Shown one piece after another: positions 1,531-6,043 of a stretch of DNA of 64,000 nt. The stretch's first letter is position 1; every line of letters starts with the position of its first letter. The notes under the pieces were generated by a model that ran no database searches, was not told the DNA's origin, and saw only the letters and a program-made list of their open reading frames with translations. Both the position numbers and the translations under genes were made by a program. The stretch is from Escherichia phage vB_EcoM-RPN226. The stretch lies in sequence record OL770073.2. One strand, written 5' to 3'.

Positions 1531-1560
1531 AAAAAGGGACCTTTCGGTCCCTTTGTTTTA
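1531..1560. terminator. bidirectional rho-independent terminator between rnlB and gene 24
   Basis: hairpin AGGGACC-TTTC-GGTCCCT flanked by T-runs on both strands. Confidence 0.7.
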
Positions 1561-2841
1561 TTCATCAACGATAATTTTTGGTAATTTAACACCTAATAAA
1601 ACAGACAAATCTGAACGACCCGCCATTTTATCCATGTCTCCACCATCAATTATTCTTGCTTCTTTTTCATCTTTTGCTACAGTGTAAGGATTTGCAGATA
1701 AAGCATATCTAACCAATAAACCGATAGATGGTTGTAAGCTTTCTGGATCAACCACAACTTTAAATGCACCTACATGTTCAGGGTCATCTAAGTCGAGACC
1801 TTCTGTATACGGAGCATAGAAAATTGATCCGACAATTTCTTTTTCACCAATATTTTCTACTACGCCAACGATTACATAATCTAATGGGCTGTTAGTATCG
1901 CAATAAAGCGGTAAACCATTAGCTAAGAACCCATAGGCATTTTGTGAAAGATATTTATCATCTTCTGGTTTATGTTTTAACCAACCTGATGCAGCAAGAA
2001 TCGCAGCGGCACGAGCTGAAGCAACACAGAACGTTGCAGTATAAGTTGATTCTTTTTGGATATGCGAAACCATTTCACATACCATTCGGTATAATGAACG
2101 ACCAGCTTCAGGTGCAGATGCATAACTCAAATCGATGAATCCACTATCAGTAATTCCTGTAACTTTATAGCGTTTTGACACTGTAATCAAAGACTGCAGA
2201 ATATCTTTATTGATTTCATCTGCCATTTCAGTTGCAAGCAAATCTTCCAAGAAATTAGGAGCATCGAATCCATTTGCTTCTAAATCTTGCGCTAATTCAA
2301 CTGTGATGCCAGTTTTAAGTTTACGAGATTTAACCGCGGTTTGCCATTTATTAATCTGGAATCTAGCATCCGCAATTTCACTATCAGAGCTTTCAAATTT
2401 GCTTGTTGACGCTGCGTCAGAAAATAGACGAACCTTTAAAAGAACAATTGCAATCTGAAGAGCTAGCTCTAAGTCACTTTCTTGAATATCTGCAAATGGT
2501 GTATCTTCTAACACTTTATAGACGATATTATTATATTTGAATAAATCGCCTTTATTGAGAGTTAATTTAGACTCTTCTGTTAATTCTGTGATTTGTTCTC
2601 GGTCTACGTATCCAGCTTCGCCAGCATAAGTAGCACCAGTTTTAAATGTAAATTCGTTATCTGGGTTAAGGTATTTGATACCGTAAAAAGCAGCAACAGG
2701 TTGATTAGTTCTTTGCGTTGCTACAATGTCAGAATATATTAATTTAGTGGTAGCGCGAGTCAAAGCAACGAGATTTGGGCGACCGATTGAGTTGCTATTC
2801 GTTGTGGTTGATTCGCGCAGAAGTTCGTTGATTTTAGCCAT
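1558..2841 (-). CDS. 24: head vertex protein gp24
   Basis: 427 aa, gp23-like fold paralog, sits next to gene 23 as in T4; late promoter TATAAATA upstream on minus strand. Confidence 0.9.
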   Translation of the reverse strand: MAKINELLRESTTTNSNSIGRPNLVALTRATTKLIYSDIVATQRTNQPVAAFYGIKYLNPDNEFTFKTGATYAGEAGYVDREQITELTEESKLTLNKGDLFKYNNIVYKVLEDTPFADIQESDLELALQIAIVLLKVRLFSDAASTSKFESSDSEIADARFQINKWQTAVKSRKLKTGITVELAQDLEANGFDAPNFLEDLLATEMADEINKDILQSLITVSKRYKVTGITDSGFIDLSYASAPEAGRSLYRMVCEMVSHIQKESTYTATFCVASARAAAILAASGWLKHKPEDDKYLSQNAYGFLANGLPLYCDTNSPLDYVIVGVVENIGEKEIVGSIFYAPYTEGLDLDDPEHVGAFKVVVDPESLQPSIGLLVRYALSANPYTVAKDEKEARIIDGGDMDKMAGRSDLSVLLGVKLPKIIVDE

Positions 2842-2868
2842 TGCGCTTTCCTTTTGGTTTATATGATT

Positions 2869-2876
2869 TATTTATA
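2869..2876 (-). promoter_or_regulatory. late promoter (TATAAATA) for gene 24
   Basis: TATTTATA on plus strand 28 nt upstream of gene 24 start; second copy at 2899-2906. Confidence 0.6.
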
Positions 2877-2915
2877 CTTTTCACGTGATGTGATAAAATA
2901 TTTATAGGAGGATTT

Positions 2916-4427
2916 ATGTCTATTGATATTTATAAAGATAAAAATGGCAAGCTGAACAAGAACTGGAAAATGATACACGCTAAACACCCTGAAATCATTG
3001 ATAGTATTGAGTTGCCATATGATGACCCTAAAACAAAAATCGTTTTAGCGATAAACGGAATGACAGAACTTAGCCGCTGTAAAAACTGTGGTGTTGAGAT
3101 GGATATCTCGAAGCTTGGCTCAGATTATTGCTCTAGAAAGTGTTCAGCTAACTCATCTGAAGTTAAGAGGAAAAAGCTTGATAGCATTAATCTTGAAGAA
3201 CGCGGCAAAAAAATTTCTGAATCTCTTAAAGGTAAATCCACTGCAAAATCTTGGAATACTCGTAAGAAAAAGTATGGTGAAAAAGGATTTAGCCAAACTG
3301 GGATAGAAGCTATCAAAAATAACGGAGTTAATTCTAGCGAAAAACGAATTAATACAATGATTACCCGTTATGGAGTTAAAAACCCGTTTCAACTGGAAAG
3401 CGTGATTGAAACTATATCCAAGGTTCAAACAGAGAATAACACCGCACGAAACCATTTACCCGGTTGGCTGTATGATAAGAATAAATTTAAACAAGTTTAT
3501 TCTAAATCTGGAATTAGAGGAATAATCAAAAAATCTGGCTGCGGTGCAAATTTAGCATATGTTTTATCACGTGAATATCAGCTCCGAGATATGAAAACTA
3601 CTTCGGCCGAAACAGAGATTCTGAGTTTTATTAATGAACTCGGGTTTGAAGCAGAGAAGACGCGCCAAGTGATAGCACCTTTTGAGCTGGATATCTATGT
3701 CCCAGAGAAGAAGCTTGCTATTGAGTTCAACGGTCTTTACTGGCACAGTTCAGGCTCAAAGGAACAGGACATTATTAAGAATAACCATCTCAAAAAGACT
3801 GAGATGTGTGAAGCACAAGGAATTCATCTGCTGCATATCTTCGAGAATGAATGGGTAGATGATACTAAACGCGAGATATGGAAATCGGTTATTAGAAATA
3901 AACTTGGTAAATCTGAACGCATCTATGCGCGTAAATGTAAGGTACATCCGGTTGATTCTAGAGCTGCTAAAGAGTTTTGTGAGTATAACCATTTACAGGG
4001 TCATGTCCCATTCCAGAATGCCCTGGGTTTATTCTATAACGATGAATTAGTACAGTTGGTCACATTTGGCAGAGGCCGCTATCAAGGTAAAACCGAATTA
4101 CTTCGTATGTGCACAAAACGTGGATACAGCGTAGTAGGTGGTGCTTCAAAACTTCTCAAGGATAAGAAATTTATTTCTTATGCTAACCGTAGATGGTCTA
4201 TGGGTAATGTGTATCAACAGATCGGTATGAAACAGATTGGTGTTACTCCGCCGTGTGACTATTATTTTGATAAAGGCCGTCTGTATCACAGGTCAAGTTA
4301 TATGAAACACTTATTAAAAGACAAGCTCAAAGTTTTTGATGAAAATCTTAGCGCGATAGAAAACTGTTATAACAACAAAATAAGAAGAATTTGGGATTGT
4401 GGTAATATAGTTTATGAATCCCAATAA
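2916..4427 (+). CDS. putative homing-endonuclease-like protein with Vsr/PD-(D/E)xK-type nuclease core and N-terminal Cys cluster
   Basis: 503-aa ORF antisense to the late cluster between genes 23 and 24; strong RBS taggagga; CKNCG...CSRKC zinc-finger-like cluster; FELDIYVPEKKLAIEFNGLYWHS resembles Vsr/DUF559 motif; no GIY-YIG motif. Confidence 0.55.
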   Translation: MSIDIYKDKNGKLNKNWKMIHAKHPEIIDSIELPYDDPKTKIVLAINGMTELSRCKNCGVEMDISKLGSDYCSRKCSANSSEVKRKKLDSINLEERGKKISESLKGKSTAKSWNTRKKKYGEKGFSQTGIEAIKNNGVNSSEKRINTMITRYGVKNPFQLESVIETISKVQTENNTARNHLPGWLYDKNKFKQVYSKSGIRGIIKKSGCGANLAYVLSREYQLRDMKTTSAETEILSFINELGFEAEKTRQVIAPFELDIYVPEKKLAIEFNGLYWHSSGSKEQDIIKNNHLKKTEMCEAQGIHLLHIFENEWVDDTKREIWKSVIRNKLGKSERIYARKCKVHPVDSRAAKEFCEYNHLQGHVPFQNALGLFYNDELVQLVTFGRGRYQGKTELLRMCTKRGYSVVGGASKLLKDKKFISYANRRWSMGNVYQQIGMKQIGVTPPCDYYFDKGRLYHRSSYMKHLLKDKLKVFDENLSAIENCYNNKIRRIWDCGNIVYESQ

Positions 4428-4435
4428 ACGAAAAA

Positions 4436-4467
4436 AAGGGAACCCGAAGGTTCCCTTTTTATTTTCT
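4436..4467. terminator. bidirectional terminator between 503-aa gene and gene 23
   Basis: hairpin GGGAACC-CGAA-GGTTCCC with A-run before and T-run after. Confidence 0.7.
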
Positions 4468-4477
4468 AAATTAAATC

Positions 4478-6043
4478 TTAGATACCTTTCACGTATACAC
4501 GGCGGAAGTAAGCATTTTTACCAAGGCTATTCAGAATAGAAGGCATACCGCTCTGGATGCGAGAAGCCGGAGCCTGAGCAGCGGATTCTGCAAATGGGTT
4601 GATACCGATACCGTAACGAGTTTTGAAACCCATAACAGGCTGGAAATTTTTCGGATCAGAACCACGCAGCGGAGTCAGAGCTACATATGGAGCATAGTAA
4701 ATACCAGCATCCATTTCGTTCGGACCTTTATAACCTACAGTGAAATAATCCTGTTTAGCATACTGGTCGATATATACACGGTATTTACCACCCAGAACAC
4801 CAGCAAATACTGACTTGGTAGTATCAGTGTTAAAGCCGGTAGCCAGACCCTGTGCAGCATAAGAAATGCCAGTATCAACTGAAGCCAGAACGTTAACTAC
4901 GTTACGGGAAGCGATAATGAAGTTACCTTCACCACGACCGGTCTGACGAGCAATTTCAACTGCTTCTTTGTCAATCTGGAACAACAGAGCTTTAAAGGAT
5001 TCACCCGCCCAGCGAGCACCACGAATATCAATCGGATCCTGGAAGTCAAATACACCAGCTTTAGAACCCGGAGTCAGGGTCATACCAGATTTACCAACCT
5101 GAGCTGAGTAGTTAATCCAATCAACAACTTCACGGTTGATTTCCAGCATGATTTCGGTAGCCAGAATACCAGACAGTTCAGCATCAGCATCCATACCGTG
5201 AACAGCGCGGAGGTCTTGTGCTAATTCGATAGAGTAAGCAGCTTTCAGCTGACGAGATTTAGCTTCGATAACTTGTTTATCGATACGGAAGCCCATTTCA
5301 TTCCATGGGTTATCGGTAGAACCGTTGAAACTTTCCTGGAGTTCAGCGATAGAAGTAGCCATACCTTCAGCGATTTCTACCAGTGCACCAGCTTCCATTT
5401 GTTTCTTAATTTCAGCATCTAATTTAGCTGCGTCAGTTGCACTTGAACTAATTGTTACTTGAGCAGAAGCTTGCAGATACACAGTACCAGTGTCCTGGAA
5501 GAAGTGAGTATAGATATCACCTGCTGTGGTTTGTGTGCTAGCAGCCAGAGCTGCGAATTTCTTAGCAGCACCCTGACCAGAGAACATTGCATCTGGACCA
5601 TACATTGGGTGGAATGCTTCTTTAGCACCAGAAGCGACCGGGTCTTTACCATATACTGCGCGCAGTGCGAATACCTGGCCAGTCGGGCTGTTCATCGGCT
5701 GAACACCGCAAATATCGAAAGCAATCAGGTTAGGAATAGCACGACGTACCATACCCATAACAGCTGGGCCAATCTGAGTTACTGCGCCAGAAGTCTGACC
5801 TGCAGCGATGTTGGTAGCATTGTAACCGTGGTCACCGCCGATTTCAGCTTCTGTTAAGAAAGAACCAAATGCCTGAGCAATTTTTTCGTCTTTGTACTCT
5901 GGAGCTGTCTGGAAATCTTTTTCCTGGTTTTCAAAGATTTTAGCGATAATCGCTTGTTTGCTATTAGCAATTTCCGGTAAACCTTCACCTTCCAGTAATG
6001 GCTTCCATTTGTTCAAAAGTTCAGCTTTAGTTTTGATAGTCAT
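4478..6043 (-). CDS. 23: major capsid protein gp23
   Basis: 521 aa, MTIKTKAELLNKWKPLLEGEG... matches remembered T4 gp23 almost residue for residue. Confidence 0.95.
   Translation of the reverse strand: MTIKTKAELLNKWKPLLEGEGLPEIANSKQAIIAKIFENQEKDFQTAPEYKDEKIAQAFGSFLTEAEIGGDHGYNATNIAAGQTSGAVTQIGPAVMGMVRRAIPNLIAFDICGVQPMNSPTGQVFALRAVYGKDPVASGAKEAFHPMYGPDAMFSGQGAAKKFAALAASTQTTAGDIYTHFFQDTGTVYLQASAQVTISSSATDAAKLDAEIKKQMEAGALVEIAEGMATSIAELQESFNGSTDNPWNEMGFRIDKQVIEAKSRQLKAAYSIELAQDLRAVHGMDADAELSGILATEIMLEINREVVDWINYSAQVGKSGMTLTPGSKAGVFDFQDPIDIRGARWAGESFKALLFQIDKEAVEIARQTGRGEGNFIIASRNVVNVLASVDTGISYAAQGLATGFNTDTTKSVFAGVLGGKYRVYIDQYAKQDYFTVGYKGPNEMDAGIYYAPYVALTPLRGSDPKNFQPVMGFKTRYGIGINPFAESAAQAPASRIQSGMPSILNSLGKNAYFRRVYVKGI

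Follow-up and report, generated by a model that had tools for sequence, protein, structure and literature searches.

The 64,000-nucleotide (nt) stretch of Escherichia phage vB_EcoM-RPN226 DNA analyzed here (sequence record OL770073.2; the whole stretch is called the window below) contains a gene, gp158, that is best explained as a free-standing homing endonuclease gene of the Hef type (EDxHD family, Vsr-like), inserted antisense in the gap between capsid genes 24 and 23, the slot in which T4 carries segD. We put the probability of this explanation at roughly 0.8. The gene occupies 2916..4427 on the + strand (503 amino acids, aa, plus stop in the list of open reading frames, ORFs) and is flanked by gene 24 (capsid vertex protein, 1558..2841) and gene 23 (major capsid protein, 4478..6043), both on the − strand. 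Its sequence is 100% identical to “hypothetical protein RPN226_gp158” of the same phage, which can now be renamed a Hef-like (EDxHD/Vsr-like) homing endonuclease. Chance could not account for this ORF. As an earlier note made from the sequence of this DNA had it, the 503-aa frame runs antisense to the late genes behind a strong ribosome-binding site (RBS): a Shine-Dalgarno (SD) sequence, AGGAGG, read from the sequence at 2906..2911 (+), lies 4 nt before the ATG. The interval given there for the gene, 2842-4477, is the whole intergenic region rather than the gene itself, and the sequence foreign to insert-free relatives starts at 2878.

Homology places gp158 in the Hef family. PHROG 3339, “homing endonuclease,” matches residues 6-502 (E = 2e-142), and U5 Hef (AY262133) aligns with residues 72-503 at 43.5% identity (tblastn, E = 3e-98). 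Full-length relatives with 45-63% identity are found in Yersinia phages phiR1-RT, TG1, fHe-Yen9-01, and JC221, in Providencia phage PSTCR6, in Pseudomonas phage PspYZU05, and in many Acinetobacter phages; the labels on full-length relatives are “Hef-like homing endonuclease,” “homing endonuclease,” and “putative nuclease/acetyltransferase.” Homologs number in the thousands. At 90% identity gp158 is a singleton, its next relative being 74% identical, and the 64-kb window holds no paralogs elsewhere. A single-protein query of IMG/VR returned no close relatives, while an alignment-based scan returned 576 distant ones. The conservation counts given below, as well as the AlphaFold2 input, come from an alignment of 69 relatives.

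According to a review, U5 Hef is a unique endonuclease that cleaves nrdB (Edgell et al., 2010, PMC2988022), and “hef-like” is listed as a class of homing endonuclease genes that includes a single copy in phage 133 (Petrov et al., 2010, PMC2993671). What we say of U5 Hef is based on reviews and on the GenBank record. The earlier note called gp158 atypical, a description that does not stand, since bacteriophage Hef type homing endonucleases had already been placed in the Vsr-like EDxHD family (Taylor et al., 2011, PMC3239194) and orthologs in the 23/24 slot carry the RefSeq annotation “homing endonuclease.” The gene is an added member of a described family, and it is notable as the first seen in this Tequatrovirus slot and for its clear insertion signature. 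Among the listed publications on RPN226, none has a title that deals with gp158.

The genomic position is conserved along with the sequence. In all seven of the annotated full-length relatives that were inspected, and on a 74%-identical metagenomic contig, the gene is found at the same place, between the genes for the capsid vertex and major capsid proteins, and in antisense orientation. Sharing of slot and orientation by these seven relatives and the contig therefore indicates a site-specific lineage that spans several Straboviridae genera.

Domain architecture and the nuclease core

The AlphaFold2 model of gp158 has a mean predicted local distance difference test score (pLDDT) of 91.6. The earlier note had picked out a Cys cluster, a basic repeat region, and a Vsr/PD-(D/E)xK-like core, and each of these is borne out; its account missed the C-terminal third of the protein (aa ~333-503), a Mom-like domain with a GNAT fold. 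The Cys cluster corresponds to an FCS/TRASH-like Cys4 zinc finger at residues 55-76 (3078..3143, +; C55-x2-C58-x13-C72-x3-C76), whose cysteines are kept in 64-66 of the 69 relatives and whose profile matches, to the FCS zinc finger (2L8E) and the L24e zinc ribbon, are weak. Behind it, aa ~81-225 (3156..3590, +) form a basic region of KxxxTxxxxYG repeats that is all-helical in the model and that DUF7487 matches in 36 of the 69 relatives (best match, 1e-37).

The helical repeats are presumed to be a DNA-recognition module. They are the least conserved part of the family (majority-residue frequency of 0.29, with ~0.3 for the N-terminal parts), and relatives at other loci have different N-termini, among them DUF723, DUF4379, and treble-clef fingers. 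Together, the nuclease domain (0.64) and the Mom-like domain (0.62) make up a cassette that stays constant (0.63). A variable recognition N-terminus joined to a fixed catalytic part is the layout expected of a modular homing enzyme. No NUMOD-type N-terminal module was matched in Pfam at E ≤ 1; a NUMOD3-like “EERGKKISESLKGK” was seen by eye only.

A Vsr-like nuclease fold is present at aa ~226-332 (3591..3911, +), and it contains the motif ELDIYVPE...AIEFNGLYWHS on which the earlier prediction of the core was based. The only significant sequence match in the PDB is the catalytic domain of the homing enzyme I-Bth0305I (3R3P; E = 0.0017 with the single sequence and 7e-4 with a profile). The alignment pairs D259 with the catalytic D196, H277 with H213, N272 with N208, and E232 with E170. 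Across the family, D259 and H277 are invariant (69/69), E232 is kept in 62 of 69, and N272, at the x position of EDxHD, is Asn in 44 relatives and Asp in 25; the other invariant residues of the domain are H291, K294, T295, and H307. Judged by this alignment, E232, D259, N272, and H277 are candidate active-site residues. For the Hef family, no non-nuclease function has been demonstrated.

Neither a GIY-YIG nor an HNH domain was matched in Pfam at E ≤ 1, in agreement with the earlier reading, and the “HNH endonuclease” name of phrog_559 is an annotation only. Automatic annotations of family members vary: “G:T-mismatch repair DNA endonuclease (Vsr)” (P0020 and P0117, JGI), “HNH endonuclease” (phrog_559), and “nuclease/acetyltransferase.” The HNH and mismatch-repair labels on relatives are misleading and unsupported by domain evidence.

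If the JGI names of P0020 and P0117 were taken at face value, gp158 would be a Vsr-type mismatch-repair nickase, a reading with which the Vsr fold and weak Vsr matches (Pfam, 0.078; TIGR00632, 0.001) also agree. The scores nevertheless fall far short of the cut-offs, with 19.4 bits against 97.85 for the TIGR00632 equivalog and 13.3 against 27 for Pfam Vsr (PF03852). The zinc finger, the repeats, and the Mom-like domain are unlike Vsr architecture, the closest solved relative by sequence is a homing enzyme, and the phage gene is an intergenic insert whose presence is polymorphic. The failed equivalog threshold effectively refutes the mismatch-repair reading, to which we assign next to no probability. 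Because thresholds failed and the genomic behavior is of the homing type, we reject both a Vsr repair enzyme and a generic restriction enzyme.

The Mom-like C-terminal domain

The C-terminal domain (3912..4424, +) has a GNAT fold that is closest to Mom of phage Mu, the top Foldseek match (8BV8, E = 7e-6), which comes before generic acetyltransferases. Profile-profile comparison with a 31-sequence alignment of the Mom family gave a probability of 85% (E = 5.8e-6). Mom was not detected by plain sequence or profile searches of PDB sequences, and a single-sequence hhalign comparison gave a probability of 5.8%. The Pfam Mom family (PF25680) reached 18.7 bits, below its gathering cut-off of 27.1 and over aa 342-391 only; it matches 20 of the 69 relatives at E ≤ 0.01. 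The relationship to Mom is solid only through the fold search and the profile-profile comparison.

Conservation within this domain is high, as it holds 16 of the 26 invariant columns; its invariant residues include H359, E394, R397, G408, S411, R426, and Y433. Activity of Mom needs H58, Y59, R111, S124, D149, R151, and Y159, with R111, S124, and R151 essential (PMC13219725), and R111 characterizes Mom relatives and not GNATs at large (PMC7261163). The counterparts of H58, R111, R151, and Y159 in gp158 (H359, R397, R426, and Y433, respectively) are kept in all 69 relatives, and Mom E108 is also aligned to a kept residue. Y59 corresponds to L360 (Leu in 66 of 69) and D149 to N424 (Asn in 59, Asp in 10), and S124 falls in an alignment gap beside G408-G409-A410-S411, of which G408 and S411 occur in 69 of 69. 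Used alone as a query, the domain finds 14,543 cluster representatives, of which 9,447 match at E ≤ 1e-10, and in the best 150 matches it is almost always C-terminal, in proteins of 270-830 aa. To judge from these patterns, the domain would be more than a passive appendage. It is an under-studied feature of the Hef-type family, whose members have been viewed as simple homing nucleases but possess, besides the nuclease, an equally conserved domain related to Mom, a tRNA-dependent DNA-modifying enzyme.

The same conservation is what one would look for in a single-chain weapon resembling a restriction-modification system, in which the Mom-like domain would modify the phage’s own adenines by acyl or aminoacyl transfer and the nuclease would attack unmodified DNA of the host or of a co-infecting phage. 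The gene would then be kept for its competitive benefit, not by pure selfish homing. The invariant equivalents of Mom’s essential R111 and R151, of which R111 is Mom-specific, and of H58 and Y159 fit such a role, as does the presence of the module in >14,000 cluster representatives, nearly always as a C-terminal fusion. Against it, T-even DNA is already protected by glucosylated hydroxymethylcytosine, and a single precise slot, presence/absence polymorphism, and variable recognition modules are the behavior of homing, not of general restriction. The replacement of Mom Y59 by Leu and of D149 by Asn in most members, the ambiguous equivalent of S124, and the score below the Pfam Mom threshold argue in the same direction. 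Exactly such a role has been proposed for fusions of a restriction endonuclease (REase) with Mom in jumbo phages, which were read as restriction-modification-like (Iyer et al., 2021, PMC7824862), whereas U5 Hef is reported to be site-specific and to cut near its own locus (PMC2988022). On balance we consider the weapon reading unlikely.

Somewhat more room, although it is still a doubtful proposal, may be given to the idea that Hef-type enzymes, a family of more than 10,000 sequence clusters, are bifunctional homing enzymes. Here, on the strength of its invariant Mom-type residues, the Mom-like domain would be an active DNA (amino)acyltransferase, possibly tRNA-dependent, that marks adenines at or near the target. 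Such marks could make the carrier allele or the repaired product immune to re-cleavage, and the protein would be a selfish element that cuts and marks with one polypeptide.

Insertion site, gene 23 tract, and expression signals

The sequences flanking gp158 match >1000 T4-like phage records, with identity up to 98%, and the insert is covered by none of the 1070 matching phage records. In the 23/24 slot of Tequatrovirus phages, no copy other than gp158 was found. The 24/23 gap is 83 bp in most Tequatrovirus genomes (e.g., vB_EcoM_P8), and the alleles of the slot in this genus are empty, segD, a 64-aa ORF, and gp158. The 64-aa ORF, in Escherichia phage 310Ecol104PP (L092, 1444-1638) and also in vB_EcoM-G28, is antisense, has no assigned function, and is unrelated to SegD and gp158. 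That T4 has a smaller seg gene in this slot, of a different nuclease class, had been recognized in the earlier note and is confirmed: segD is antisense as well, and blastp of gp158 against T4 SegD gave nothing below E = 0.67. Phage vB_EcoM-RPN226 is apparently absent from the INPHARED phage collection (August 2025), because no INPHARED record contains the insert, although NCBI protein data do include the phage.

The left boundary of the insert is sharp, with homology to the insert-free allele stopping at 2877/2878, just past the gene 24 late promoter; on the right side, homology resumes around a shared terminator hairpin. No segD remnant was found beneath the insert, which has only a 33-nt terminator hairpin in common with the T4 intergenic region. 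Unrelated endonuclease classes, the GIY-YIG enzyme SegD and the Hef type, have thus invaded the 24/23 gap independently, which makes it a hotspot. Given that unrelated classes occupy it, and that the same Hef lineage does so across genera, the conserved end of the major capsid gene is a good candidate for a shared homing target.

Synonymous divergence next to the insert is asymmetric. The last 181 nt of gene 23 (4478..4658, −) contain 12-13 clustered differences from three close relatives, all of them synonymous, compared to 21-34 in the remaining 1385 nt (Fisher p = 2e-4 to 2e-3) and 1-2 in the first 181 nt of gene 24. Over the terminal 223 nt of gene 23, identity to any phage record is 96.4% at most; on the gene 24 side, 78 records reach ≥99%. 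Synonymous changes specific to RPN226 include those at 4490, 4493, and 4514. Beyond the tract, positions 4659 to 5137 are identical between the window and vB_EcoM_P8. The 74%-identical relative (L004) adjoins a gene 23 that is only ~67% identical and is without the tract polymorphisms. We regard the tract as a candidate co-conversion or target-immunity tract: its asymmetry is suggestive of recent homing with co-conversion from a foreign donor, and changes conferring target-site immunity would leave a tract that looks the same. It also suggests that the cut site may lie on the gene 23 side, where the DNA coding for GKNAYFRRV is itself conserved between genera.

A difference at the 3′ end of gene 23 is also seen in T4, a segD carrier. 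At the equivalent of window positions 4502-4505, T4 reads TAC TTT AGA, and RPN226, vB_EcoM_P8, phiR1-RT, PSTCR6, and phage 133 read TAC TTC CGC. This amounts to three synonymous changes in two adjacent codons, including an arginine CGC-to-AGA switch, and it could be a mark of SegD-related immunity or co-conversion.

Downstream of gp158, a hairpin at 4433..4460 has a 12-bp stem (−17 to −18 kcal/mol on both strands) flanked by an A-run and, on the opposite side, a T-run; it is therefore able to act as a bidirectional intrinsic terminator, common to gp158 (+) and gene 23 (−). This hairpin is older than the insert, as it is found also in insert-free phages and in T4. Two bidirectional terminators had been predicted to bracket the gene; the 3′ one holds, but neither a consensus scan nor folding of either strand revealed a 5′ terminator-like hairpin in 2842-2915, which instead contains the gene 24 late promoter and a sigma70-like/extended −10 element.

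On the − strand, a 66-bp interval (2869-2934) contains three exact copies of the T4 late-promoter motif, TATAAATA, each directed at gene 24. The first (2869..2876) is the native gene 24 promoter, with homology to insert-free phages ending at 2877, and the other two (2899-2906 and 2927-2934) are in the 5′ end of the insert, over the SD and first codons of gp158. The 64 kb hold 22 such motifs vs. 9.4 expected; five orthologous upstream regions, scanned by eye, have one or none each. Any role of the extra motifs at the gene 24-facing end of the insert would be putative. These motifs would be in keeping with gp158 as a decaying or domesticated remnant, one that arrived by homing, no longer cuts, and persists through promoter and terminator signals used by genes 24 and 23. 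Edgell et al. (2010, PMC2988022) do observe that embedded promoters help T4 endonuclease genes to be kept and that expression of segD at this position is probably very low. However, the ORF is full-length with a strong RBS, all family-invariant residues of both catalytic domains are intact, and the adjacent synonymous tract, together with the fact that no close relative has the insert, points to a recent rather than an ancient arrival. We consider a remnant very improbable.

On the + strand, a consensus scan gave a candidate sigma70-like promoter at 2871..2899 (TTTATA-17-TAAAAT, with a TG extended −10). An extended −10-like element of the form TGnTAnAAT (TGATAAAAT / TGATATAAT) lies at 2891-2899, ~7 nt 5′ of the gp158 SD, and recurs before the 23/24-slot endonuclease genes of most other genera checked (L001, ~3970-3985; upstream regions of L086, L087, and L090) and before T4 segD (L002, ~1905-1925). 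If this putative promoter functions, its transcripts would begin at or just before the SD. For segD, no specific promoter was identifiable according to the 2010 review (PMC2988022). In a read-through transcript (2842-2915, +), the gp158 SD AGGAGG can pair with the complement of the gene 24 SD (CCTTTT; minimum free energy, −8.9 kcal/mol). Such pairing, which is weak, would resemble the translational control by RBS sequestration of other T4 endonuclease genes (PMC2988022). Further left of gene 24, the window contains rnlB.

Proposed homing cycle and comparison with known systems

When RPN226 and a relative without gp158 infect the same cell, the variable N-terminal part of the protein, its zinc finger and basic helical repeats, would recognize a site at or near the 23/24 junction, most likely at the end of gene 23. 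The Vsr-like (EDxHD) domain would cut there, probably as a dimer like I-Bth0305I, and recombination-dependent repair would then use the RPN226 allele as the template, so that gp158 and markers next to it are transferred to the broken genome. The Mom-like GNAT domain would be part of the catalytic cassette, for which the most conservative role may be dimerization and/or DNA gripping.

Several points weigh against this account. The presumed activity of gp158 derives from 43% homology to U5 Hef. The fifth EDxHD residue, D222 in I-Bth0305I, aligns uncleanly, on the non-conserved N289, with D285 (44 Asp and 7 Glu) and the invariant H291 nearby. The gene 23 tract could be ordinary mosaicism, because aa 136-238 of gene 23 form another variable patch, and a donor sharing the tract polymorphisms was not found. 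Conservation of the Mom-like domain, including Mom’s essential arginines, exceeds the need of a purely structural role. Lastly, a convincing dedicated promoter with a normal leader was not found for gp158.

Comparison with known systems places gp158 among homing endonucleases of the Hef type. Mu Mom, a Gly-tRNA-dependent DNA adenine modifier (PDB 8BV8), resembles its C-terminus in the Mom-type GNAT fold and the aligned H58, E108, R111, R151, and Y159; in gp158, by contrast, the domain is fused behind a nuclease, Y59 is Leu, D149 is mostly Asn, and an invariant VVGGAS loop takes the place of the S124 region. The REase-Mom fusions of jumbo phages likewise combine a restriction-fold nuclease with a Mom-family GNAT domain, but the genomic behavior of gp158 is that of a site-specific homing element. 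From E. coli Vsr, gp158 differs in failing the Vsr equivalog threshold and in its architecture and biology. I-Bth0305I, the EDxHD prototype, shares the aligned catalytic Asp, His, Asn, and Glu as well as a modular N-terminal DNA-binding region, and it is unlike gp158 in being intron-encoded and 266 aa long, with NUMOD/HTH modules and no Mom-like domain (PMC3239194).

T4 SegD is alike in slot, antisense orientation, and downstream terminator hairpin, but it has no sequence similarity, is 220 rather than 503 aa long, and belongs to another nuclease class (GIY-YIG). The Hef-like proteins U5 Hef, phiR1-RT g177, Acj133p179, and KARL-1 gp099 are homologous to gp158 over the nuclease and Mom-like domains, and their genes, like gp158, are free-standing and intergenic between conserved genes. 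U5 hef differs in lying between nrdA and nrdB and in having another N-terminus, with similarity starting at aa 72, whereas the 23/24-slot orthologs have slot, orientation, and downstream hairpin in common with gp158.

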